From Spirochaetia bacterium (GTDB taxonomy: Bacteria; Spirochaetota; Spirochaetia; SZUA-6; Bin103), in assembly GCA_965198005.1 (NCBI GenBank), contig CBDAOI010000004.1, positions 1,920,001-1,984,000 of the forward strand: DNA of 64,000 bases, in the 5' to 3' direction. Position numbers and translations under genes: made by a program. The notes under the pieces were generated by a model, which was not told the origin of the DNA, searched no databases, and saw only the letters and a program-made list of their open reading frames with translations. Of the stretch, positions 17,662-54,900 are shown piece by piece. Positions within the stretch are counted from its first letter, which is position 1; each line of letters opens with the position of its first letter.

Positions 17662-18685
17662 TAGGAGCCTGGCGCGTGCGACAGACTCCTGGCGGACGGT
17701 GGGGATGGGCCGCAAGCGACGCCTGGCGGATGCGACATACTCAGCCGAAACCGCGGCCGTTCCTGCTCGACCTGCTGCGGCGGCTGTTCAAGGAGCGGCC
17801 GCTGGGGGCAGCGAGCGCGGTGGTGGTGTACTGCCTCAACATGTTCGGCAGTGCCGCGAGGACGCCGCCGTAGGCGACCGCGGTGGCTGGCTCGGCGAAC
17901 ACCGGCGCGGCCTCGGTCAGCAAGCCGGAGCTGGCGAGCACGCGGCCCTCGACGGCGCGCGCCGCGCGGCCCATGGGCGCGTGCTTGTCGCGGGCGTCGC
18001 GGGTGGCGCGGTCGGTGGCCGCCGCCGACACGACCTGCAGCGTGGCAGCGCCGAGGCGCCAATTGCCAGAATCGACGCCGGGTGACTGGGGAGTTCTCGC
18101 CAGGGGTCGTTGGTCGGTTTCCTGCGAGTCACGCCGAAAGCTGGCCCTCGGAGCGGCGATTCGTCCCTGCTGGCGGCCTGGGCGGCTCATTCGGCTCATT
18201 GCGTTCGCTACGTTAGCCATGTTAGTATCGCTCTGATGGCAACCCTCTCCGTACGCGCTCTCCCCGACCCCCTGCATCGCCGCTTCAAGCTGCTGTGTGC
18301 CACCCGCGGTCTGTGGATGCGCGCGGAGGTGATTCGCCCGATCGAGCGGGAACTCGCCATGGTCGACGATCTCGAGGCCGCTCTGCGTGCGGTGCTCGGC
18401 CAAGCGTCGGCGCCGCCTCGAGAGGACCTCGGCAGTTGAGCCGGCTGGGCCGATTCGTGGTTGACGTTCACGGGGGCGGAGGTTATGATAGGGTGGATGC
18501 AGTCAATCGCGACATCGCGACTACATCTGGGTATGGCTGTGCCTCACCTGCGGAGGGCTTGGAGTGACTTATAACACGTCAACGCTTATGACACTCTGTT
18601 CCCCTGACAGCCGCTCGCCGAGAATTGCTGAAAATCAGCTCGCGGCGGGCTTGCTTAATGGTGAGGAGTCCCCCCCCCCCCCCCC
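17662..18685 (+). repeat. Second copy of duplicated segment (dppC remnant, transposase-like fragment, RHH gene, IS end, poly-C)
   Basis: Near-identical to 6012-6198 followed by 6874-7706. Confidence 0.9.
18236..18439 (+). CDS. FitA/Arc-like ribbon-helix-helix protein (orphan antitoxin-like)
   Basis: 67 aa, MATLSVRALPDPLHRRFKLLC. Confidence 0.65.
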   Translation: MATLSVRALPDPLHRRFKLLCATRGLWMRAEVIRPIERELAMVDDLEAALRAVLGQASAPPREDLGS

Positions 18686-18939
18686 ACTTTTTCGAACCGA
18701 CAAACAACTAACCGCTCCGGCTGATCGCCGCGTACGCGAAAACGCGCACGCGGGCGCCTTCACCACCGCCGTAGCTATAGCTATCGGTTGCGCGGGCTCG
18801 GTCCATCGCCAAACCGGCATGCGGACCGGCCACGCCCTTCCCGGCGATCGCAACCGTCCCGGATCCTCGCCGGCGACTGACTGCCGGCAAAGCTCACCAC
18901 CGGCGTTGCCGGCCGCGAGGCACCCCGACGTGAGGAAGA

Positions 18940-19151
18940 AGGAGGTCAAGATGATACTCAAAGAGCCGCACGTGCGCGCGGCGTGAGCCCGGGTGAACCC
19001 GGATGAGTCACACGCCGCGCGCTCTTATTGTACGTGACTCAGACTGGCAGTCCGCGTTGGCGGGCGCGCCCGCGTTGCGGTGCGCGAGAGTAGCCAGGGA
19101 GCGGCAATCCGCTCCGCAATACTCTCAAGAATACATTTATGGGAGAAAACC
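18940..19151 (+). promoter_or_regulatory. Structured 5' leader with uORF MILKEPHVRAA (18951-18986), candidate cis-regulatory RNA
   Basis: Conserved with 48610-48818; stems show compensatory changes. Confidence 0.65.
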
Positions 19152-20983
19152 ATGGATTATATCGTACGCATTACAAGGACCTTCGCGGTTGCGTTGGTCC
19201 TCGCCGTGACCGCGCCCGGCCTCTGGGCCACTGGCGCAGAGGAAGACGCGACCGCCGCTGACAAGCAGTATGTGACCGACCCCGTCACCGGCAAGGAGGT
19301 GACCGCGCCAGAGTATGGCGGGACATTGACCTTCGCCGATCGGGGCAGATGGCGTTCGGCTCCTATGACCATGTATCATGGCCATGCATTGAGCCAACAA
19401 CAGTGTCGTCATAGAGAAACTGGGCGTCGCTGACTGGGCAATAGATAGGAAGAGATATCCTTTCGTCGGCGGCTACCAGCTGCCTGTATACGCCACGAGG
19501 GGGGCGCTGGCTGAAAGCTGGGAACAGCCCGACCCCACAACGTATGTCTTCCACATCCGCCAGGGTGTCCACTGGCATGACAAGCCGCCGATGAACGGTC
19601 GGGAGCTCACCGCCAAGGACATCGAGTATAACTTTCACCGGCACTTGGGTCTGGGCAGCGGCTTCACCGAACCTTCCCCTTGCTGCGTAGGGTTCCTCGG
19701 AGAGTTGCCTTGGGAATCGATAGAGGCCACCGACGAATGGACGGTTGTCATGAAGCTGAAGAAGCCCACCCTTCTTGCCCTGGGCACCATCTTGGACGGA
19801 TTCTATGCGATACAGCCCCCCGAAGTAATTGAGGCATCAAAGACTGCTGAAGTGCCAGAGGGCAAGATTTCGGACTGGAGGGACATGGTTGGCACCGGGC
19901 CCTACATGAGAACCGACTGGGTCGGGGGCAGTTCTTATTACCTACACCAAGAATCCCAACTACTGGAGCGACGACGAAAAATATCCGGGGAACCGCTTGC
20001 CCTATATTGACGAGCTAAGGAGCCTTGTTATGACCGAAGTGGCAACAGAGCTATCGGCACTGCGCACGGCTAAGGATCGATGGCATAGGTTGGCAGGGGC
20101 GAATGCACAATTAAGCTCCCTGGACCAGGCAGAGAGCCTCGAGCGCACTAACCCAGAGCTCGTAATTCACGCGTGGTCAGAACGGTCGAATAACAATTTT
20201 TGGCTCAACGAGAGCAAGCCGCCCTTTGACGACATCAGGGTGCGCCACGCAATGCAGATGGCACTTGACGTCGAGACAATGAGCGCGACCTTGTACAAGG
20301 ATTTAGGAGATCCGATACCTCGCGGGCGAGTAGGCCTGGAATTCACGGGGTTTACGTCCCATTTGACGAGTGGCCCGAACAGCTCAAGGGATACTATACC
20401 TATGACGTGGCGGGGGCCGAGAAGCTCCTTGATGAGGCTGGGTATCCGCGCGGCGCCGACGGCATGAGATTCGAAGACCAATCATTGTGTGGCTCGACAT
20501 CGCGGTGATTATGATATTAACTATGCAGAATTAATGCCGTTTCATACTGGCGTGAGATTGGCATTCATGTCGACATCGAGCACACTCCCTGGGGCTGAAT
20601 TCGGTCCCAGAGCGCAAGATCGGAAATGTTGGAGGTTTCGTGTGGCCCGCCGGCGTCAAGGCTTTTCCAGTTCAGGTCAAATGGAAACATTTTCGAGCGA
20701 ATATGTCTGGAACCCCAGGCAGCGACGCGCAATACGACGCCTGGTATGAAGAGATGCTAGCTGCTGCCACTGAGGAGCAGCAGATGAGCGCGATCAAGAA
20801 GCTGGACATGTACAGCATAGAGCAGCACTGGATGATCTGGGGGGCCTTGGCCCAGCGTTCAACGTGCACCAGCCGTGGGTGATAGGCTACAACGGCGAAG
20901 GCGGTTTCGGTAGAAGTCGAAATAATGATGTCTTCGCCCGCCTCTGGATTGATAGTGCGCTGAAGGAGGAAATGGGTCATTAG
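19152..20983 (+). pseudogene. Family-5 SBP, full length, multiple frameshifts
   Basis: Signal peptide through LWIDSALKEEMGH*, spread across several reading frames. Confidence 0.85.
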
Positions 20984-21017
20984 GGGGTTCACCCCTTGTG
21001 GCTGACCTTGCGGAAGA

Positions 21018-21052
21018 AGGGAGCTGGGGGCTGAAGAGCCCCCCAGCTCCCT
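21018..21052 (+). terminator. Strong GC hairpin after SBP (stabiliser or terminator)
   Basis: AGGGAGCTGGGGGCT-gaag-AGCCCCCCAGCTCCCT; no U tract. Confidence 0.45.
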
Positions 21053-21155
21053 CATGGGAAACCGCGAGGTGCGCGGTTGAAGCGCAGGCAGTGCGAGACC
21101 ATAAGCTGGACCCGCGGGAGCACCTTCGAGGGATAAGGCACCTCGGTTGCGTCAC

Positions 21156-22161
21156 ATGAGAGCCTATATCATCAGGCGGTTATTGCTCATAATCCCCACC
21201 TTGTTCATAATGAGCATCCTGGTCTTTCTTTCTGTCCGTTTCATCCCCGGCGACGTAATAGACCTGATGTTGGTTAGGATGCAAGAAACGGCGAGTGGCC
21301 ACATTGACCGCGAAACCCGTCTCGAGCGTTATCTGGGATTGGACGTGCCTGTGCACGTGCAGTATGGACGCTGGATGGGAGTGTTGCCGACCCCCGGCTG
21401 GATTACCGGTGAGCCCTTCTTTAGAGGTCTGCTTCAGGGCAGCCTTGGCGAATCACTGATACGCGGCGCTGTGCGGTAGAGGAGGAGATACGAAGTAGAT
21501 TGCCGGTGACCATCGAACTCGGTTTCATGGCAATCGTAATCGGCTTGATAGTAGCGCTGCCAATCGGCATCTACTCGGCGATTCGCCAGGATACGGCCGC
21601 CGACTATGTGGGGCGCTCGGTCGCCATCATCGGCCTGGCGACGCCGAACTTCTGGTTGGGAATTATGGTCATGATCTTCCCGGCAATCTGGTGGGGTTGG
21701 TCGCCGCCGATGGAGTGGATACCTTTGACCGAAGACCCGCTGGGGAATATTGGGGTGTTCATCATTCCCAGCCTGATTCTGGGGACGGCCTGTCCGCTGC
21801 CACCATGCGGATGACGCGTACGATGGTGCTGGAGGTGCTCAGGCAAGACTATATCAGGACGGCTTGGTCCAAGGGCTTGAAGGAGAGGGTCGTCATCATG
21901 AGACACGCCCTCAAGAACGCATTCATGCCGATAGTTACCCTGGTGGGCATGCAGTTGCCTGTCCTGGTCGGTGGCTCGGTTATCATGGAGAACATATTCA
22001 ACCTACCGGGTCTGGGTCGTCTCATGGTGATGGCGCTCATTGAGAGAGACTACCCAGTGGTCTCGGGAGTAAACCTGTTTTTCGCCACCGCGGTTGTGGG
22101 AATCAATCTTATGATAGACCTGATCTATCCCTATTTGGACCCGAGGGTCCGCTATAGCTAA
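21156..22161 (+). pseudogene. DppB-type permease with frameshifts (~21470, ~21790)
   Basis: Three consecutive ORFs each match parts of the dppB at 50858. Confidence 0.85.
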
Positions 22162-40865: not shown

Positions 40866-41083
40866 GCCAATACGAGGGTACCACGGTCGTAGTTACGATG
40901 TCAATACACGACGGGTGAGGAGCGGTGAGGAGCACGCCTTCCATTAGGGACGATCTGTTCTGCCACGATCTCTTCTTTCAGATAGGTGAGGGCATAGCCG
41001 CGCAGATACGCCACTGGGCGAACAGGTCGCCTTCGATCACGTCCTGGAACAGAAACTCAGCACCGCGGAGCCGATCCGAAAAG

Positions 41084-41428
41084 TGGAGGTGGCGGGAATC
41101 GAACCCGCGTCCTGAGAGGTGCACCTGCGGCGTCTACAGGTTTAGCCGGCTGTTGTTTGCTTGGCGACGCCTTGGTGAGCCGACCAACCGGCGCCGGTGC
41201 AGCCCGCTGTTTGAGTTTCCCGCCGCACCCGCGAGCCGATGTGGCGGTGAGTTCTGAATTGCGTCGGGGTTGCTCGTCGCTCAGGACCGCACTTCAAGTC
41301 CCCGTGGCTACGTTATCAGGCAGCCAGTGCTAGATCTGTTTCGGCAGATCAAAAGTTCCAGGTTAAGGAGACTGGGCTCCACCTGCAGCCGCAAACATCA
41401 ATCTCTCAGTCGAAGCCAGGTCACCCCC
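41084..41428 (-). ncRNA. ssrA: tmRNA; predicted tag (A)AETDLALAA at 41316-41345
   Basis: 5' GGGGGTGACCTGGCTTCGAC; 3' GCGGGTTCGATTCCCGCCACCTCCA; adjacent to smpB. Confidence 0.93.
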
Positions 41429-46236: not shown

Positions 46237-46749
46237 CTAAAGGGCGGACTCGAGGTCGCTCAATCGTGCCAACAGGACCAGCGGGTCGATTGGGGACTGC
46301 ACCAACCCGCAGTCCAGGTAGAAGCATCGGGCACGCTCGTTCAGCGCGTGGACGAGAACGGCGGCGACCCCGATTTCGTTGGCGGCGGTTCGGACCCGAA
46401 CCAACGCGTCTCGCACCAGTGCACGGCCGACCCCCGCACCTTGCTCGGCTGTTGCAACGGCCAAGCGCCCCAGTACGACGGCCGGGATCGGATCGGGCAC
46501 GTTGCGGTGGATTCGACCGGGTGCTTGGCGGTGATCGATAGCGCCTTCCGCCAGTGCGTAATAACCCTGGACGACGTGCCCGCGGCGAACCACGAAGGTG
46601 CGCGAGGCGCCGGAAAACTGGTTGGTCTTGGCCCGACGGATGAGCCAGTAGTCGAGGCTCGCCACGCCGCATTGGAACGCCTCGACCCGATGGGTGTCGC
46701 GGAGTTGCTCCGGTGGACCGAGAGGATGCCAATCAACGGCTAATCCCAC
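46237..46749 (-). CDS. GNAT toxin (TacT/AtaT-like)
   Basis: FQCGVASLDYWL, GYYAL, PIPAVVLGRLAV..QGAGVGRALV, VHAL..FY. Confidence 0.88.
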   Translation of the reverse strand: MGLAVDWHPLGPPEQLRDTHRVEAFQCGVASLDYWLIRRAKTNQFSGASRTFVVRRGHVVQGYYALAEGAIDHRQAPGRIHRNVPDPIPAVVLGRLAVATAEQGAGVGRALVRDALVRVRTAANEIGVAAVLVHALNERARCFYLDCGLVQSPIDPLVLLARLSDLESAL

Positions 46750-46895
46750 GGCGCCGCGGTTCCGAGCACCCGCTTGAGATTCTCGTTCGGCTTAGGCGGT
46801 GCGTCGAGGAGCTGCATGAACGCGTCAAACCGGTCGGAGTCCACGCGCAACAGGACGCGATCAAGCAGCGCGTTTTCGGCCGCCTGCCTCGCCAC
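46740..46895 (-). pseudogene. DUF1778 (TacA-like) antitoxin, N-terminus replaced by IS DNA
   Basis: ARQAAENALLD..FDAFMQLLDAPPKPNENLKRVL..APWD*. Confidence 0.8.
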
Positions 46896-48157
46896 CACCA
46901 CGACATCCTGCAGACCGCCATCGTCCACCCCGACAAGCGGCAGGTGCTGCCGTTGGCTCCCGGGTTCATTCACAACGCCGATGACTCTGGCGCCAAGAGC
47001 GCCAAACGCCGCAAGCAGGACTGTGAACTAAAAGCCGGCTACCGTGCCGTGCAGCGCATCCGTAACGACCATCCCCGGCTGGCTACGGTGATCGTCGCCG
47101 ATAGTCCGTGCTCCAAGCAACCGTTCATCGAACAGGTGCGCGCCGCCCGCTTCTCGTTTCTGCTGGTGGCCAAGCCGGAGGATCACACCAGCCTGTACCA
47201 GGATATCGACGGGCTGCGCCGCGGTCGGCTGCTGGACCACCGCTGCACCATCGACGCGACCGGGGACCGGCATGAATACGAGTGGGTTACCGGGGTGCCG
47301 CTGAACGGCAACCCCCGCAGTCCCCAGATCAACTTCGTGCACTACCGCATCGTACGGGCCGGCACGACCACCTATCAAAACGCCTGGGTGACCGACTTGG
47401 TGCCCACCGCTGGAAGCGTCGCGCGGATCGTGCGTGCGGGACGGGCACGCTGGAAGATCGAGAACGAGGGGTTCAATACGCTGAAGAACCAGGGCTATCA
47501 CCTGGAGCACAACTTCGGCCACGGTGACAAGTACCTGTCGGAGGCGTTCTTCCTACTCAACCTGCTGGCCTATTTCATGCACCAGATATTCGAGCTGGTG
47601 GACGGTCTGTATCAGCAGGTGCGGGCTGGGTTCGGGTCGCGCCGGGAGTTCTGGGGCGCGATCCGCGCCACGTTCCGGCTATTCCTGTTCCCGTCGTGGG
47701 ACCAGGTGCTGGTGCGGATGAACTCGCCGCCGCAGCCGCTGTCCGGGTAGCCGCTCCCTGGAGAACTGAACCTGCTCCCTGAACGATCCCTGACGAGGGC
47801 CGCGGCGCAGGTGTGCCGGCCGCGGCTGAGCACCGCCCCCGAAGGCCGATCGCCGCACCGCGCCAGCCCGCGGAATCGGCCGACCGGCGGTGGCTGACGG
47901 TGGTCAGGTCATCGCACCGGGCTGGCTTGACGGTGGCTAAATACATCACCTGCAATCAGTTACAGAATTTCTTCCGGGTCGGACCGTGCATTCACTCGGT
48001 GGGCCAACAGGTGGGCATGGTCGCGTTTCACACTCGGAGGGCTTGAGCTTATGACAGGGCTTGCGGTCTCGCCCTCAAGACTATTCTGCTGTAACCTTTC
48101 GGCCCCCAATGTTGCATTACTGTTTATGATGCTCTGCTGCTCCCCGAGAATTGCTGA
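46893..48157 (+). mobile_element. Right part of an ISNCY-like IS: transposase C-terminal fragment (to 47750) plus terminal repeat
   Basis: KQDCELKA, GRARWKIENEGFNTLKNQGYHLEHNFGHG; CCGAGAATTGCTGA at 48144-48157. Confidence 0.8.
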
Positions 48158-48260: not shown

Positions 48261-48359
48261 CTTACCGACTTACCGACTTACCGCGCGCCGCTAGCGGCTC
48301 AGCCAACGCCCGGCAGCCAGCCGCGCGGCAGCCAGCCGCGCGGCAGCCAGCCGCGCGGC
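48261..48359. repeat. Short tandem repeats (CTTACCGA x~3; CGGCAGCCAGCCGCG x3)
   Basis: Direct read. Confidence 0.85.
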
Positions 48360-48609
48360 GCCGGTGCTGAGCGCGGCACCATTGATCCGTGTGGCGCACA
48401 GCCGCCACGCGTCCGTGCGTCCAACGGCCGACCTGTTGGCCCGCAAACTGATACCAGTCCACACCTGCATGCGTAGCGACGTGGCCGGAGCGAGAAGGGG
48501 CGCGGCTGTGCGCGACCATACTCGTGGGCCACAGATGCGCGCTAAGCCGTGGCAGCGGCTCGGCGATCGCCGGGCCACCGTTCTGTCAGAGGAACCTGTA
48601 GCTCAAGAG

Positions 48610-48818
48610 AGGAGGTGCAAAATGATACTCAAAGAGCCGCACGCGCGCGCGGCGTGAGCGGGGGGAACCCGCTGAGTCACACGCCGCGCGCTTTCAGTGT
48701 AATTGACTCAGACTGGCCGTCCGCGTTGCGGGCGCGCCCGCTGTTGCGGGCGTCAGAGTAGCCAGGGAGCGACAACTCGCTCCGCAATACTCTGGAGATA
48801 ACATTTAAGGAAGACACG
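48610..48818 (+). promoter_or_regulatory. Structured 5' leader with uORF MILKEPHARAA (48622-48657), candidate cis-regulatory RNA
   Basis: Homologous to 18940-19151, with co-varying stems. Confidence 0.65.
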
Positions 48819-50660
48819 ATGAAAAACTTTTTGACACTGACCTTCGCGGTTGCGTTGGTCCTGGTTGTGACCGCAACCGGCCTCTGGGCCGGCGGTGGCA
48901 CGGAAGAGGAGCCGCTAGCGGCGATGGAGAAGGAAATGGTGCGCGACCCAGCCACCGGCATGATGGTAACGGCACCAGAGTACGGCGGGACATTGACCAT
49001 GTCCAAGTCGGGTGGCTTTCCTCCGACTACTGACCCGTATTTTTCCGGGGGCTGGGCCGGCCACAGCCTGCTCCATGGTACTCTAGAGTTTCTAAGCATT
49101 GCCGACTGGGCAATAGATAGGGACCAATTGGACTGGTCAAGTTTTGCCGTTCCTCTATCTGGCTTAAGAGGGGCGCTGGCGGAAAGCTGGGATATTTCCG
49201 AGGACGGGCTCACCTATACCTTCAACATCCGCCAGGGCGTTTACTTCCACGATAAGCCACCGGTGAACGGTCGGGAGATGACTGCCAAGGATGTCGAATA
49301 TACCTTTCACCGCAATCTTGGAAATCGATTGACAGGGACCGAATTCTCCGAAGCCGAACCTACCCCCGACCTCCGTTGGCAGGGGTGGGATACGATGCCG
49401 ATCGAATCGATAACAGCAACGGACAAATGGACGGTTGTTTTTAAGCTGACGCGGCCAGACGCCCGTGCGCTGCGGGGTATCATCTCCCCTTCAGTTCACT
49501 TAATTGTTGCACGAGAGGTAATCGAGGAATACGGTGACATGAAGGATTGGAGGAACGTGGTCGGCACCGGACCCTGGATGCTGACTGACCTTGTCGAGGG
49601 CAGCTCTATGACCCTTACCAAGAATCCTAACTACTGGAGCGACGACGAAAAATACCCGGGGAACCGCTTGCCCTATGTTGACGAGTTCAGGGTTCTGGTT
49701 ATGCCAGAAGCGGCAACACGAATTGCGGCACTGCGGTCGGGTAAGATCGATTACGCCGGCGCCGCGCTCTCCTCTCCTGTCCTCGACAGTATCGACAAGG
49801 TGGAGAGCATGCAGCGGACCAACCCCGAAATCGTGATATGGGAGCATATAATACGGCAGAACTCTAGTTTTGGCATGAACACGCAGAGGGCGCCCTTTGA
49901 TGACATCCGGGTGCGCAAGGCTATGCAGATGGCACTGGACCTTGAGACACTGAACGAGACCTACTTCAAAGGGTGGGGAACGTGGGGACCTCAGGGACTG
50001 ATTGCCAACGATGTCCCACTGGCTGGCACCCCATTCGAAGAATGGCCCGACGAGGTCAAGAAAGGCTATAGGTATGACCCGGCAGGGGCGGAGGAGCTCC
50101 TTGATGAGGCGGGGTATCCGCGCGGGGCCGACGGCATCAGGTTCAAGGCCCATTTGGTCTGGTTTGACAAGCAAGATCCGAGCTTTATAGAATTACTAGC
50201 CGCTACGTACTACCGTGACATTGGCGTTGATGTAGAGATTGAGCTAGTGCCAGGTCCGGAATATAATCCTAGAAGGAAAGCTAGAGATTGGGACATGCTG
50301 ATGACCATAGCGGCCGACACGGGGTCGTCGCCGCCTTGGAACGCCATGGCTAGGTACAAGACTGGTGCTGATAATAACACCGCCAATGTGAACGATCCGG
50401 CTTATGACGCCATGTTGGCAGCCGCCGAAAAGGTAAGCACGGAAGAAGAGCAACTGCTTTTGGTGAAAGAGCTGAATATGTACGCAATAGAGAGGCACTG
50501 GACCGTATTTGCTGGTAATGTAATACCGTCGACGACCGTGACCCAGCCGTGGGTCAAAGGTTATAACGGAGAATTGAAACTGGGAGGTAACCATTTTGAA
50601 TATACCATCGCCGCCCGCCTCTGGATCGACCAGGAGCTGAAGGAGTCGATGGGATTCTGA
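48819..50660 (+). CDS. ABC transporter substrate-binding protein, family 5
   Basis: Signal peptide LWAGGG, YGGTLT, LAESWD, GTGPW, PFDDIRVRKAMQMALD. Confidence 0.92.
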   Translation: MKNFLTLTFAVALVLVVTATGLWAGGGTEEEPLAAMEKEMVRDPATGMMVTAPEYGGTLTMSKSGGFPPTTDPYFSGGWAGHSLLHGTLEFLSIADWAIDRDQLDWSSFAVPLSGLRGALAESWDISEDGLTYTFNIRQGVYFHDKPPVNGREMTAKDVEYTFHRNLGNRLTGTEFSEAEPTPDLRWQGWDTMPIESITATDKWTVVFKLTRPDARALRGIISPSVHLIVAREVIEEYGDMKDWRNVVGTGPWMLTDLVEGSSMTLTKNPNYWSDDEKYPGNRLPYVDEFRVLVMPEAATRIAALRSGKIDYAGAALSSPVLDSIDKVESMQRTNPEIVIWEHIIRQNSSFGMNTQRAPFDDIRVRKAMQMALDLETLNETYFKGWGTWGPQGLIANDVPLAGTPFEEWPDEVKKGYRYDPAGAEELLDEAGYPRGADGIRFKAHLVWFDKQDPSFIELLAATYYRDIGVDVEIELVPGPEYNPRRKARDWDMLMTIAADTGSSPPWNAMARYKTGADNNTANVNDPAYDAMLAAAEKVSTEEEQLLLVKELNMYAIERHWTVFAGNVIPSTTVTQPWVKGYNGELKLGGNHFEYTIAARLWIDQELKESMGF

Positions 50661-50857
50661 CGCAACGCCTGCGGCGTTGACTGAATCAATCGCCCTACGG
50701 GCGATTGAAACGGGAGTCGCTGCGCGACTCCACGAGCGAGTTCGCCGTAGGCGACTTAGCGTTTTCGCGGTCGTTCTGGCTGCATAGAAGGGCGCCGGGA
50801 GGCGCCGGGAGGCGCCGGGAAGCCCGAGGCTTCCCGGCGCCCATTTACCACGAAGAT

Positions 50858-51865
50858 ATGAGAGCGTACATCATCAGGCGTTTCTTGCTGGCAATCCCCA
50901 CCCTGTTTATATTGAGCATCCTGGTCTTTCTCTCGGTCCGCTTCCTCCCCGGCGATGTAATAGACGCAATGGCGAATAGGATGCAGTCCGAGGGCCTGGC
51001 CATCGAGATTGACCGTGAAGCTTTTGAGCGTATGCTGGGATTAGACGTGCCTGTGTACGTGCAGTATGGACGCTGGATAGGAGTGTTGCCGACCCCTGAC
51101 TGGTTTACCGGTGAGTCCCACTTTAAAGGTCTCCTGCACGGCACCCTTGGCGAATCATGGATGTTTGGCGGTTTTTCGATAGAGGAGAGGATACTCGGTA
51201 GATTGCCGCTAACCATTCAGCTTGGTGTCATGGCAATCGTAATCGGGCTCGTCATAGCGCTGCCGGTCGGCATCTACTCGGCGATTCGCCAGGATACGGC
51301 TGCCGACTACGCGGGGCGCACCATCGCCATCATCGGCCTGGCCACGCCCAACTTCTGGTTGGCCCTGATGGTCATGATCTACCCGGCAATCTGGTGGGGC
51401 TGGACGCCACCGATGGAGTGGGTTCCTTTCACCGAAGACCCGCTGGGGAATCTCGGGGTGCTCATCATACCCGCCGTGATTCTGGGGACGGCCATGGCTG
51501 CAGGCACAATGCGGTTGACACGCACCATGATGCTGGGGGTGCTCAGGCAAGACTATATCAGGACTGCCTGGTCAAAGGGCCTCAGTGAGAGGGTTGTCGT
51601 GGTGAGACACGCCACAAGGAATGCCCTCATCCCGGTGGTTACGTTGATGGGCATGCAGTTGCCTCTGCTGGTAGGTGGCTCCGTTATCATGGAGAACATA
51701 TTTAACCTGCCCGGCTTAGGTCGTCTCTTTCTGACTTCACTCGAAGGCAGAGATTACCCTGTGGTCTCCGCAGTAAACCTGGTTTTCGCTACGGTTGTTG
51801 TGGGGGCGAATCTCATCATCGACCTGACCTATCCCTACCTCGACCCGAGGGTCCGTTATGAGTGA
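50858..51865 (+). CDS. ABC permease, DppB/OppB-like
   Basis: MRAYIIRR, QDYIRTAWSKGL, RDYPVV. Confidence 0.92.
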   Translation: MRAYIIRRFLLAIPTLFILSILVFLSVRFLPGDVIDAMANRMQSEGLAIEIDREAFERMLGLDVPVYVQYGRWIGVLPTPDWFTGESHFKGLLHGTLGESWMFGGFSIEERILGRLPLTIQLGVMAIVIGLVIALPVGIYSAIRQDTAADYAGRTIAIIGLATPNFWLALMVMIYPAIWWGWTPPMEWVPFTEDPLGNLGVLIIPAVILGTAMAAGTMRLTRTMMLGVLRQDYIRTAWSKGLSERVVVVRHATRNALIPVVTLMGMQLPLLVGGSVIMENIFNLPGLGRLFLTSLEGRDYPVVSAVNLVFATVVVGANLIIDLTYPYLDPRVRYE

Positions 51866-52772
51866 AGCCACAGGGGTATCATCATCAGTAATTGCGCCGA
51901 AGAGACGTACCGGGCTGGCTGATTTCTTCATCAGACTGTGGAGAGAGAAGCCACTGGGTACGATCAGCGGGATTATCATATTGCTGTTTATCTTTGTTGG
52001 TATCTTCGCCGATGTTCTGGCTCCCTATCCGTATGATGAGCCACACATACGTGACATGATGAAAGGCCCGTCAGCCCAGTATCTCCTCGGTACGGACCAG
52101 TTGGGGCGAGACTCATTGAGCCGCATCATCCACGGGACTCGTACTTCGTTGCTCGTCGGTCTGGCCACGACCGCTCTTGGTGTCGTGATCAGCACCCTGA
52201 TCGGCGGCACTTCGGGGTTCCTGGGTGGCAAATTGGACCTGGGTGTGCAGAGATTTGTCGACGCCTGGATGTCTTTCCCGGGACTGCTCCTGTTGTTGAC
52301 GATCATGTCTATCGTTGGGCGGGGTGTGCCACAGATAATACTGGTGCTGGGGATAGCAGGAGGCATCGGCGGCTCGAGAGTGTTGAGAGGCGCCGTTATC
52401 GACATCAAAGAGAATGTGTATTTCGAGGCGGCAGAGGCGATCGGCAGCTCAAAATGGAGAGCATTTATCCGACATGTCGTCCCCAATATCATGCCTGTCA
52501 TAGTCATCGGATTCAGCATCAACATCGGAGGCGTAATCCTGAGTATTGCATCTCTGGGCTTCCTCGGATACGGCCTGCCGTTCACGATTCCTGAGTGGGG
52601 AGGTCTGCTCAGCCGGGAAGGGCGTGAGTTCATGGAGATAGCGCCACGGCTGGCTCTCTGGCCCGGTCTTGCCCTGACTATTACCGTTTACTGTCTCAAC
52701 ATGTTCGGCGATGCGATGCGCGACCTGCTCGACCCGCGGCTGCGGGGCGGTGGCGGGCGGCCGGGTGCCTAA
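51858..52772 (+). CDS. ABC permease, DppC/OppC-like
   Basis: LGTDQLGRD, RHVVPN, GDAMRDLLDPR. Confidence 0.92.
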   Translation: MSEATGVSSSVIAPKRRTGLADFFIRLWREKPLGTISGIIILLFIFVGIFADVLAPYPYDEPHIRDMMKGPSAQYLLGTDQLGRDSLSRIIHGTRTSLLVGLATTALGVVISTLIGGTSGFLGGKLDLGVQRFVDAWMSFPGLLLLLTIMSIVGRGVPQIILVLGIAGGIGGSRVLRGAVIDIKENVYFEAAEAIGSSKWRAFIRHVVPNIMPVIVIGFSINIGGVILSIASLGFLGYGLPFTIPEWGGLLSREGREFMEIAPRLALWPGLALTITVYCLNMFGDAMRDLLDPRLRGGGGRPGA

Positions 52773-52819
52773 CCACACACACTCGATACCAAGGAACACT
52801 GAAATTGCCTAGCTAGCTA

Positions 52820-54900
52820 GCTACAGCTACATCACGTCACTCGATACGAAGGAGGACGCCCTCGAGGTCGTCGGCGGCAAGGGCCGCTCTTTGGCCAAGT
52901 TGGCGAACGCCGGCTTCCCGGTGCCTGGCGGGTTTCAGGTAACCACCGCGGCGTATCGCAGCTTTGTCGCCGACCACGAGCTGCAGGCACGCATCGTTGC
53001 GTTGGCCAGGCCGGCGGTCGTCGATGGAAGAGCCTCGTTTGAGCAGTCGTCGGCCGCCATCGGGCAGTTGTTTGCCGACACCGAGATCTCGGCCGAGATC
53101 AGTGCCGAAATTGGCGACTGGTATGGCGCCCTGGCGGGCGGCACCCTGGAGGGCGAACCCGCGTTGGCGGTGCGCTCGTCGGCGAACGCCGAAGACCTGC
53201 CGGGTCTCTCCTTCGCCGGCCAGCAGGAGACGTTTCTCAACGTCACCGGCGCCGAGGCCGTGGTGGCTGCCGTCAAGAACTGCTGGGCCTCGCTATGGAC
53301 CGCGCAGGCCATCAGTTACCGGCACCAGAACGGCATCGCCCAGGACTCCGTGGCCATGGCCGTGGTCGCCCAGATCATGGTGCCCTCAGAGGTGTCGGGC
53401 AATGACCTGGCGTTGATGGTCGCGGATTTGTCGGAGGTGGAGCGACAGGCCTTTCGCGCATTCGAGGCCGCGCAGCATCTCGACGATCTGGCGCTGCAGG
53501 TGACGATGCCGGAGAGCGAGAGCCCCGTTTTTCTGGGAAAGACAAAGACAGGCCTCAACGACCGGATAGTGGACGAATGGCGCGCGGTCACTCGACCGCG
53601 ATTGATTGCGGTGAAGGAAGAATGGGCCGAGCTGGACCTGGATTCGGCGACGGATGAGCAACTGCTGGCAGCTATTCGCGAGATGAGTATGGAAGAAGGT
53701 TATTGCTGGGCCAGTAACTCGTACATCTCCTTCGCGACCTCCAAGTTCCCCGACGAACAGCTGCAGCATTTTCTCCGTGAAACGTTGCCGAACCACAACT
53801 TCACCAGCGGTCAACTCCTGTCCGGCATCGAGTCGAAGACCATGCAGGCCAACGAGGATCTGTTCGAAATCGCCAAGCTGGTTCGAGCGAGCGACGAGCT
53901 TACCTACCTGGTGATCGTGACGCCCGGTGAATTCCTGATGGATGAGCTGCGCGAGCACCCTGCTGCCGGCAAAGTGGTGGCGGGGATCGAGCAATACCTG
54001 GCGACCTACGGGCATCAGGGGTACTCCTTGGACTTCGTCGATCCGACCCAGGCGGAGGACCCGGCGGCCCTGTTCGCCACGCTGAAAGCGATGGTCGGCG
54101 ACCAGGACTACGACCCTGAGCATCAGCGCGCCAAGGCGGCAGCTATCCGCGAGGAGAAACTCGAGCAGATCTCGGAGCTGCTGAGCGGCCTGGAGTACTG
54201 GCAGTTTCGCTACCGCCTGTGGCTGGCCAGAAGGTACGCTCCGGTCCGCGACCAAGTCTCCTTCCTGTTGGGCTCCTGCTGGTCGCTAGTGCGCCCCATG
54301 GCGCTCGAACTGGGCCGTCGCCTGGTGGAAGTGGGCACCTTCTTGGAGGCCGAAGACACCTTCTACCTGGTCACCGACGAGTTGAACCAGGCGCTAGAGG
54401 CGCGCAAGTCGGGCAAGGCGTTACCGCAATTGGGTGCGTTGGCGGCCGAGCGACGCGAGCTGCGCGAGGCACGCAAGAAGCATCGCGCGCCGGCAGTCGT
54501 TCCCGAAGAGGCCAGGGCCAACAAGTACATTGCCCAGGCAGAGTCAATGGCAGCGCAGATCAACAACGACGAGTCCAGCGCTACCATGCGCGGTTTCGCC
54601 GTCAGTTCCGGTCAGGTGACCGCCAAGGCCAGCGTGGTGATGGGCCCGGCGGACTTCGCCAAGATGGAGCCGGGATCGATCCTGGTCTCGCCGTTGACCA
54701 CGCCGGCCTGGACGCAGCTGTTTGCCCATGCCGCCGGTCTGGTCACCGATATGGGCAGCATCCTTGCGCACGGATCGATCGTCGCTCGGGAATATGGCAT
54801 CCCCGCGGTCCTGGGGGTCGGCAACGGCACCGAGCGCATCGCGCACGCTCAGCTGATCACCATCGACGGCGACGCCGGCACGGTAGCGATCCACGACTAA
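52820..54900 (+). pseudogene. PEP-synthase-family / rifampin-phosphotransferase-like protein; no start codon upstream of the GGK motif, in-frame internal deletion
   Basis: VGGKGRSL, AVRSSANAEDLP..SFAGQQET, C-terminal LAHGSIVAREYGIPAV; PPDK_N domain breaks off after SEVSG. Confidence 0.75.

Follow-up and report, generated by a model that had tools for sequence, protein, structure and literature searches.

The 64,000-nucleotide (nt) window analysed here, positions 1,920,001 to 1,984,000 of contig CBDAOI010000004.1 from a Spirochaetia bacterium (assembly GCA_965198005.1), holds two copies of an RNA leader, each standing ahead of a gene for a family-5 solute-binding protein (SBP). Each leader begins with a near-perfect Shine-Dalgarno (SD) sequence and a short upstream open reading frame (uORF). 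From a comparison of copies across related genomes, this uORF looks like a genuinely translated leader mini-gene, in which peptide-level selection appears to be confined to the six residues Met-Ile-Leu-Lys-Glu-Pro (MILKEP). The leaders form a young family with at least 150 members; in one lineage, roughly every second gene of the expanded family-5 SBP set has one. The host is an uncultured, apparently sponge-associated bacterium with a genome of 4.89 Mb in 4 contigs and 66% G+C.

In the window, we call the two leaders copy A and copy B. Their pairwise similarity starts at the SD and continues through the leader into the signal-peptide codons downstream. An earlier, sequence-only reading of this stretch had described in both copies an AGGAGGT 4-5 nt before the ATG of an 11-codon ORF, a single substitution between the two uORFs, and a 12-bp stem (P1) whose 5' arm is made of the last codons and the stop. 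All of this holds, with the substitution lying in codon 8 (GTG/GCG) and the stem arms being perfectly complementary in both copies. The same reading had rated the uORF SD as nearer to consensus than those of the SBP genes. We agree, as AGGAGGT is complementary to the 3' tail of the host genome's own 16S rRNA, whereas the SBP genes' own SD cores span just 4-5 nt, e.g. GGAG or AGGA. The parts of both copies are as follows, with stems numbered P1 to P4.

18940..18946, plus strand: copy A Shine-Dalgarno AGGAGGT, by 16S-tail complementarity, 4 nt 5' of the uORF ATG (18951)
18951..18986, plus strand: copy A uORF MILKEPHVRAA plus TGA, 11 codons, read from the letters
18951..18968, plus strand: copy A codons 1-6 (MILKEP), the part conserved as peptide, judged by third-position excess and conservative replacements
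18969..18971, plus strand: copy A codon 7 (CAC), a free position; TAC, TAG (stop), TGG, TTG or GAG in other copies
18974..18985, plus strand: copy A P1 5' arm (uORF codons 8-11 and the TG of the stop), by complementarity and fold
18987..19003, plus strand: copy A small inner hairpin within P1, 84% of cells paired, register shifting among copies
19004..19010, plus strand: copy A TGAGTCA, complement of 19035-19041, 91-96% paired with little covariation; pseudoknot with P1 or alternative hairpin
19011..19022, plus strand: copy A P1 3' arm, 98.8% of cells paired
19035..19041, plus strand: copy A TGACTCA, pairing with 19004-19010 by complementarity
19050..19085, plus strand: copy A hairpins P2 and P3, P3 being restricted to the long leader form
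19086..19126, plus strand: copy A long hairpin P4, by fold and alignment
19152..19154, plus strand: copy A start codon of the SBP paralogue, a gene in 6 tblastn pieces and three frames
48610..48616, plus strand: copy B Shine-Dalgarno AGGAGGT, 5 nt 5' of the ATG
48622..48657, plus strand: copy B uORF MILKEPHARAA plus TGA, 11 codons
48645..48656, plus strand: copy B P1 5' arm, by complementarity and fold
48673..48679, plus strand: copy B TGAGTCA heptamer
48680..48691, plus strand: copy B P1 3' arm, by complementarity and fold
48704..48710, plus strand: copy B TGACTCA, the heptamer partner
48718..48753, plus strand: copy B hairpins P2 and P3, by fold
48754..48794, plus strand: copy B hairpin P4, by fold
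48819..50660, plus strand: copy B intact 613-aa SBP_bac_5 gene (Pfam), followed by permease genes at 50705-51865 and 51858-52772

Coding character was assessed on copies collected with a query that begins at codon 8 and leaves uORF codons 1-7 unused, which avoids circularity. This uORF-blind set comprises 152 copies in 8 genomes, 71 from the host and 81 from relatives (including 60 regions from the model-match list). An NTG codon stands at the aligned start in 137 copies, and on the 132 unique ones among these, changes were counted by Fitch parsimony on a FastTree tree of the 200 nt downstream. In codons 2-6, 12 changes were inferred at first, 10 at second and 71 at third positions. The excess at third positions has an exact Mann-Whitney p of 0.004, and the top three variable sites of the 15 are all third positions (p = 0.022). 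Codons alternate between CTC and CTG at Leu3, GAA and GAG at Glu5, and CCG, CCT, CCC and CCA at Pro6, which is nearly invariant as a residue with a single Ser replacement in 132 copies. The few amino-acid exchanges are for the most part conservative: Lys to Arg, Glu to Asp, and Ile to Val, Leu, Met or Thr. Codons 1-7 contain two indels, +15 nt in L108 and -6 nt in L085, neither of which shifts the frame. Among the host copies, 75 start with ATG, 3 with GTG and 1 each with TTG and CTG; their peptides are MILKEPHARAA in 42 cases, MILKEP-stop in 12 and MTLKEP-stop in 2, the rest being single or few variants.

Entropies by codon position in a 42-copy alignment show the same periodicity, with 0.18/0.09/0.56 for uORF codons 2-6. 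True N-terminal SBP codons in this alignment gave 0.32/0.23/0.44 (signal peptide) and 0.51/0.47/0.89, and uORF codons 8-11 gave 0.07/0.26/0.12. The neighbourhood is not simply slow-evolving, since the 6 nt directly before the ATG have changed 22-44 times per site. Conservation sets in sharply at the SD, from 0.38-0.52 upstream to ~0.9 from the ATG onward, and the conserved block contains variable islands, i.e., the spacer, codon 7, the post-P1 linker and the SBP initiation region. We hence favour selection over a recent conversion tract as the cause of this pattern.

Codon 7 is the least constrained of the uORF: its first base has changed 24 times and its third 20 times, and CAC, TAC, TGG, TTG, GAG and TAG all occur. 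In the host, 13 of the 71 copies have a TAG stop here, and a stop at this codon is found in 18-20 of all 152 (L115 and L119 read by eye). The letters behind it, GCGCGCGCGGCGTGA, are unchanged whether translatable or not, and codons 8-11 are conserved as an RNA stem, not as coding sequence. As codon 7 is free or a stop and codons 8-11 behave like RNA, the conserved peptide is MILKEP, and 'H[V/A]RAA' is the translation of an RNA stem. The proposal of a conserved peptide MILKEPH[V/A]RAA in the sequence-only reading must thus be given up in favour of its first six residues, behind which a stop often follows at once.

The leader is highly repeated in the host genome. With leader B as blastn query, 89 high-scoring segment pairs were obtained, corresponding to 81 copies with a 5' end. 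The uORF is present in 80 of these, with AGGAGG 4-6 nt ahead of the start in 49. In a tblastn search with the 613-aa SBP_bac_5 protein of copy B, a family-5 SBP paralogue was found directly 3' of 78 of the 81 copies; the paralogues behind leaders are mostly 42-69% identical in amino acids, two being at 30-31%. Of 187 SBP-like loci in the genome, 143 match the query over 70% or more of its length, and a leader stands ahead of 73 of these 143.

A covariance model, R1, built from codon 8 to the end of P4, i.e., without uORF codons 1-7, gave 82 matches in the host genome (G000), 40 in G001, 33 in G003, 61 in G005, 35 in G006, 5 in G007 and 1 each in G004 and G008. The leader thus occurs in 7 of the 10 sampled same-genus genomes, as also seen by blastn. 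R1 gave zero matches in the same-genus genomes G002 (81% complete), G009 and G010, and likewise in 13 sister-genus genomes and 17 genomes from other families of the order, with concordant blastn results. A 35-nt blastn match in G024 (E = 2e-4) was unconfirmed by the covariance model and treated as chance. An SBP match accompanies all 25 flanked loci of relatives and lies directly downstream on the leader strand in 23; the two exceptions are an SBP on the opposite strand in G008 and a partial match in G004. The leaderless G009 and G010 each hold a single close homologue of the SBP subfamily (43-44% identity; loci L166 and L167) behind a short, ordinary 5' region that lacks a uORF. From this it follows that leader and gene expansion go together, and the leader and the ~140-fold SBP expansion appear to have arisen together.

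Exact pattern matches in public records came from four Spirochaetia bacterium metagenome-assembled genomes and from one of a Candidatus Tectimicrobiota bacterium. A metagenome scan with a 19-nt motif of heptamer and P1 arm returned 4 matches, none of them a leader. None of 4227 Rfam families matched the leader. In the window, gathering thresholds yielded a transfer-messenger RNA gene alone (41081-41428, minus strand, 134.7 bits), and in E-value mode over 48540-48860 the best match was an unrelated long non-coding RNA model with E 0.53. A text search found 'MILKEP' in no paper of the literature library used, and keyword searches on SBPs, leader peptides and sponge symbionts gave nothing relevant, as judged from listings and abstract starts.

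Behind the uORF, the leader consists of P1 with a small hairpin and TGAGTCA in its interior, a variable linker rich in A/T (65% A+T), TGACTCA, P2, an optional P3, and P4. An A-rich tail bearing the SBP SD forms its 3' end. P1 is a 12-bp G+C stem in the minimum free energy folds of both copies, with z scores of -5.3 (A) and -3.9 (B) against shuffles. By topology, the heptamer pair TGAGTCA/TGACTCA could stack on P1 as a pseudoknot or else form an alternative hairpin. Of 63 classified copies, 21 belong to a long form with P3 and 42 to a short form. RNAalifold recovered P1 after the copies had been split into these forms, while a global alignment missed it owing to insertions. Over 50 sequences, standard pairs fill 93.5% of pair cells. 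A covariation of codon 7 (CAC/TAC/TAG) with the post-P1 linker was looked for and none was seen, TAG copies carrying no complementary change. Pairing of uORF codons 1-3 with the P4 5' strand through a shared AUACUC was likewise dismissed, as it amounts to just 5 A/U-rich pairs and is broken by the codon-3 CTG found in 31 of 132 copies.

At the downstream border of the leader, the SBP start codon lies in many copies within a small hairpin, CAUACG-GAGAAA-CGUAUG, that has the SD in its loop (e.g. window 19130-19160). CAUAGG/CCUAUG variants preserve the pairing by two-sided changes, and other copies have the unstructured AAGGAAGAAACGAUG in its place. Lying between leader and signal peptide, this SBP initiation region varies among copies (56-63%). 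The signal peptide and the first ~55 SBP codons (window 48860-49000) are at 72-93% nucleotide identity in 42 copies, with the remainder at ~35-40% per column.

The uORF stop lies inside the P1 5' arm in 108 of the 152 copies, and a ribosome at the stop must therefore exclude P1. Based on this geometry, we see about an even chance that the translated uORF, with peptide selection on MILKEP and a stem from codon 8, acts as a ribosome-sensed gate at P1 that tunes importers jointly. A ribosome would load at the near-perfect SD and synthesize MILKEP. With Pro-tRNA in its P site, it would either terminate at a codon-7 TAG or have to unwind P1 to reach the buried TGA, and P1 would be blocked from forming as long as the ribosome is present. 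We propose a dwell time after Pro6 because a C-terminal proline hinders termination in E. coli, according to a passage in PMC3834316 that cites Hayes et al. 2002. The length of the pause would depend on this slow chemistry after proline, which the nascent hexapeptide and a common cellular signal may modulate together. Whether the leader transcript is read through or instead terminates early or decays would then depend on the state of P1, and exposure of the SBP ribosome-binding site (RBS) would not. Dozens of importers would in this way be tuned jointly by the translation state.

Any signal or ligand should be a common one and not transporter-specific, since one peptide heads more than 70 SBPs that are just 42-69% identical. 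Codon-starvation attenuation is unlikely because the uORF has no residue run and three Ala codons lie behind the stop in TAG variants. The sequence-only reading had come to the same view from the lack of a run of one amino acid, and it is right in this: MILKEP is free of repeats, and the Ala codons show no coding conservation.

Several results weigh against a translated uORF that gates P1. The 71 third-position changes are an upper figure, as the counts for three common third-position polymorphisms are inflated by a weak 200-nt tree and by probable gene conversion; independent events number fewer than 71. Codon 2 is ATA in 128 and codon 4 is AAA in 127 of 132 copies, whereas the genome prefers ATC (73%) and AAG (78%), with ATA at 10.7% of Ile and AAA at 21.6% of Lys codons in a crude ORF set. 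Since both codons are kept against the genome bias, the constraint acts in part on nucleotides, either on a rare codon or on an A-rich open initiation region. The comparison of peptide with nucleotide conservation over more homologues, suggested as a check by the sequence-only reading, thus gave a mixed answer, i.e., coding-type conservation in codons 2-6 with codons 2 and 4 partly constrained as nucleotides. As a side observation, aragorn finds 50 tRNA genes in the assembly, which is 90% complete, with one CAU anticodon and no UAU (AUA decoder).

Among the relatives, 8 copies are frameshifted or lack the TGA after codon 7, all of them retaining MILKEP, and about 5 lack the ATG or the SD. Three or four ATG-less copies have an in-frame GTG two codons upstream; neither SD nor start survives in L136 or in the only G008 copy. 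Homologues without SD or ATG or with frameshifts, which the sequence-only reading had named as evidence against its proposal, hence do exist in ~13 of the 81 relatives' copies and in 0 of the 71 host copies, with all frameshifts located after codon 7. The leader and its flanks are present in contigs of four RNA libraries from three studies (sponge metatranscriptomes) at collapsed multi-copy depth, and these contigs carry no information on ribosomes, transcript ends, strand or expression level. The helices of this young family show almost no covariation. Most pairs are invariant and 6 pairs have changed on both sides, so that the support for the structure is thermodynamic and from conservation, not from covariation.

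As regards the gate itself, masking of the uORF in ViennaRNA folds of 65 copies left the unpaired probability of the SBP SD..AUG unchanged, with 0.45 in the free leader, 0.45 with a terminating ribosome and 0.44 with a ribosome at Pro6. RBS unmasking of the cat/erm type is thus unlikely. We found no conserved alternative pairing for the freed P1 3' arm, and the heptamer pair is compatible with P1. At least 4 T occur in the 8 nt after P1 in just 38 of 138 copies, with a modal count of 2, and a simple scan detected neither a terminator nor a sigma-70 promoter. P1 as a canonical intrinsic terminator was rejected in view of this weak U-tract and missing scan match; such a terminator would be present in a minority of copies at best. 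Of the earlier idea that the ribosome position sets the downstream fold, there remains the exclusion of P1 by a stop-bound ribosome, while SBP RBS accessibility stays unchanged and a conserved alternative pairing was not seen.

Upstream of the SD, the uORF frame is conspicuously open, with a median of 114 codons as against 27.5 and 6 in the other frames (80 copies). In the window it is stop-free over 140 codons ahead of copy A (18564-18986) and over 97 codons ahead of copy B (48364-48657). Within 330 nt upstream, 78 stops fall in the uORF frame versus 206 and 214 in the others, and this stop-poor pattern recurs in all three homology clusters of upstream regions; 11 singleton upstream regions have no open frame. 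A C8-C28 tract, with C always on the leader strand, lies 185-525 nt upstream in 42 of 80 copies, e.g. the run of 16 C at 18670-18685, 265 nt upstream of the copy A uORF. Between tract and uORF, the uORF frame contains no stop in 26 of these 42 copies, compared with 6 and 7 for the other frames. Tract lengths vary between near-identical copies, which suggests slippage-prone tracts or assembly uncertainty at homopolymers. The upstream region is C-rich (C 37.5%, G 29.3%), the one feature seen that bears on a Rho utilisation site. Its open frame shows no period-3 signal, with entropies of 0.38/0.46/0.41, 6 of 11 gap blocks in multiples of three and a G+C content at third positions of 0.69. Upstream of copy B (48310-48365), a 15-nt unit, GCAGCCAGCCGCGCG, stands in three tandem copies.

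These data have to be weighed against other explanations of the leader. Its main rival, which we regard as rather unlikely, is a constitutive ribosome-loading and stabilising module, in which SD and mini-ORF park a ribosome, shield the mRNA from 5' decay or Rho and raise SBP expression with no sensing. Conservation starts exactly at the SD, as expected for such a module, and in about half of the copies the SD is immediately preceded by a small G+C hairpin. The lack of a predicted alternative fold or coupling to the SBP RBS is in agreement as well, and ATA and AAA, retained against codon bias, fit an A-rich unstructured initiation region. However, mere loading would tolerate any peptide, whereas in codons 2-6 the first and second positions hardly vary and amino acids are exchanged conservatively. 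In addition, RNA-library contigs of sister copies reach at least 129 nt upstream of the SD, albeit with DNA carry-over as a possible source. A longer upstream frame of which the mini-ORF would merely form the end is quite improbable; ribosomes would enter near the poly-C tract and, in one tract phase, read as far as the stop in P1, with the internal SD/ATG as a second entry. The stop-poor frame, open from the tract in 26/42 copies and seen in all three clusters, would suit this explanation, but the upstream region lacks a coding signature, the 11 singletons have no open frame, copy B has a different upstream region without a poly-C tract, and because the copies are related, the effective sample is about three.

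An RNA-only element, i.e., a riboswitch or protein operator in which the SD/ATG letters are structural and the frame is never translated, is very improbable in our view. The leader is indeed highly structured, an unpaired GACUGGC and the P4 internal loop are at least 90% conserved, codons 8-11 are constrained as RNA, and codons 2 and 4 partly as nucleotides. Against this stands a period-three variation that is confined to codons 2-6, with four Pro codons in use and NTG in all start variants; moreover, no partner sequence was found for codons 1-6, and none of the Rfam families matches. Least of all do we expect the ORF to be devoid of an own function, hitchhiking in a 5' cassette of leader and signal peptide that was copied with the SBPs and homogenised by gene conversion. 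The family is young and lineage-restricted, its leaders show 80-93% nucleotide identity versus 42-69% amino-acid identity of the mature proteins, and the signal-peptide region is likewise conserved in nucleotides, all of which would agree with copying as a cassette. Conversion, however, homogenises contiguous tracts, whereas here spacer, codon 7, P1 linker and SBP initiation region vary amid fixed positions and the site pattern is codon-periodic.

The gate at P1 may be carried further, in a version that we consider unlikely. MILKEP might be a minimal regulatory nascent peptide that needs Pro-tRNA in the P site with any codon or stop in the A site, so that one common signal could hold the ribosome at the foot of P1. 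The leader would then be a cis sensor governing an importer regulon of 70-80 operons per genome without a protein regulator, and the poly-C-phased, stop-free upstream frame might provide a second, stochastic input to the same stop.

Of the trpL/hisL-type attenuators, the MILKEP leader shares a leader ORF with its own SD and start (80/81 host copies; NTG in 137/152 blind copies). A run of regulating codons is missing, as MILKEP has no repeated residue, and so are a terminator and a competing antiterminator, with a U-tract in 38/138 copies and no conserved competing helix. TnaC of the E. coli tna leader has 24 residues with defining Trp, Asp and Pro, occurs once per genome and acts by Rho-dependent attenuation. 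The likeness to TnaC would lie in a short leader ORF with a peptide-dependent effect, a peptidyl-Pro-tRNA beside a stop, and a ribosome position that decides on read-through. In contrast, the MILKEP core is unrelated and bears no sequence likeness, the stop follows Pro in 13/71 host copies (18-20/152 overall), each genome has 70-80 MILKEP-leader copies, and Rho dependence is a feature of TnaC.

The pyrBI (pyrL) attenuator of E. coli has a canonical intrinsic terminator and needs no regulatory codon run. There as here, the leader ORF enters a hairpin, whose formation is prevented by a ribosome close behind the polymerase; the MILKEP leader, however, differs by a complex P1 interior, a U-tract in just 38/138 copies and a leader ORF of 6-11 codons. 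In the cat-86, cmlA and ermC leaders, peptide-specific stalling occurs within the first 5-9 codons, and the other hairpin arm sequesters the RBS of the regulated gene. The MILKEP leader also has a very short ORF with a strong SD, the 3' part of which forms the 5' arm of a hairpin. Unlike in these leaders, its P1 3' arm is not the SBP RBS, which lies 130-165 nt further on, is largely unpaired and predicted to be unresponsive, and there is no antibiotic link. Finally, in 5' mRNA stabilisers of Bacillus subtilis (STAB-SD of cryIIIA; a ribosome stalled on the ermC leader), a bound ribosome protects the downstream RNA. The near-perfect SD of the MILKEP leader, far upstream of the gene's own RBS and often beside a 5' hairpin, resembles STAB-SD, which, however, requires no ORF or peptide, whereas the peptide is conserved here.

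A second leader family, unrelated in sequence, precedes other genes of the host genome; its 8-codon mini-ORF reads M-x-PKTGYD, or MQ[IT]LTVY[GD] in some variants, and has a strong SD. Blastn gives 13 copies, on contig C2 at ~148-190 kb (minus strand) and also on C4, C1 and C3. As in the MILKEP family, the mini-ORF behind the strong SD is conserved and the RNA ahead of the SBP paralogues is structured, but peptide and RNA are unrelated, and the stop of the second family lies outside any stem in the copies inspected. As for the neighbourhood in the window, the SBP paralogue of copy A (~19152-21200) is a pseudogene or a run of frameshift errors, with leader and uORF intact nonetheless. Behind copy B, SBP and two permease genes are followed by a gene with PPDK_N and PEP-utilizer domains (50705-54900), and no ABC ATPase gene lies directly after. 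An ORF at 46713-47750 has a weak DDE-transposase Pfam match below the cut-off.

Leader peptides are known as single-copy devices linked to one pathway. Here, one mini-ORF with its hairpin heads about half of 143 SBP paralogues, and the leader family has 33-61 model matches in each of four sister genomes. For annotation, this means that the MILKEP frame should be called as a small gene. Should MILKEP prove to stall ribosomes, few natural arrest or sensor peptides would be as short. The MILKEP leader is a new, lineage-restricted and very high-copy variant of the leader-peptide theme, and with the regulatory mechanism proposed here it would be a regulon-scale cis element in a lineage whose chief genomic speciality is nutrient import.

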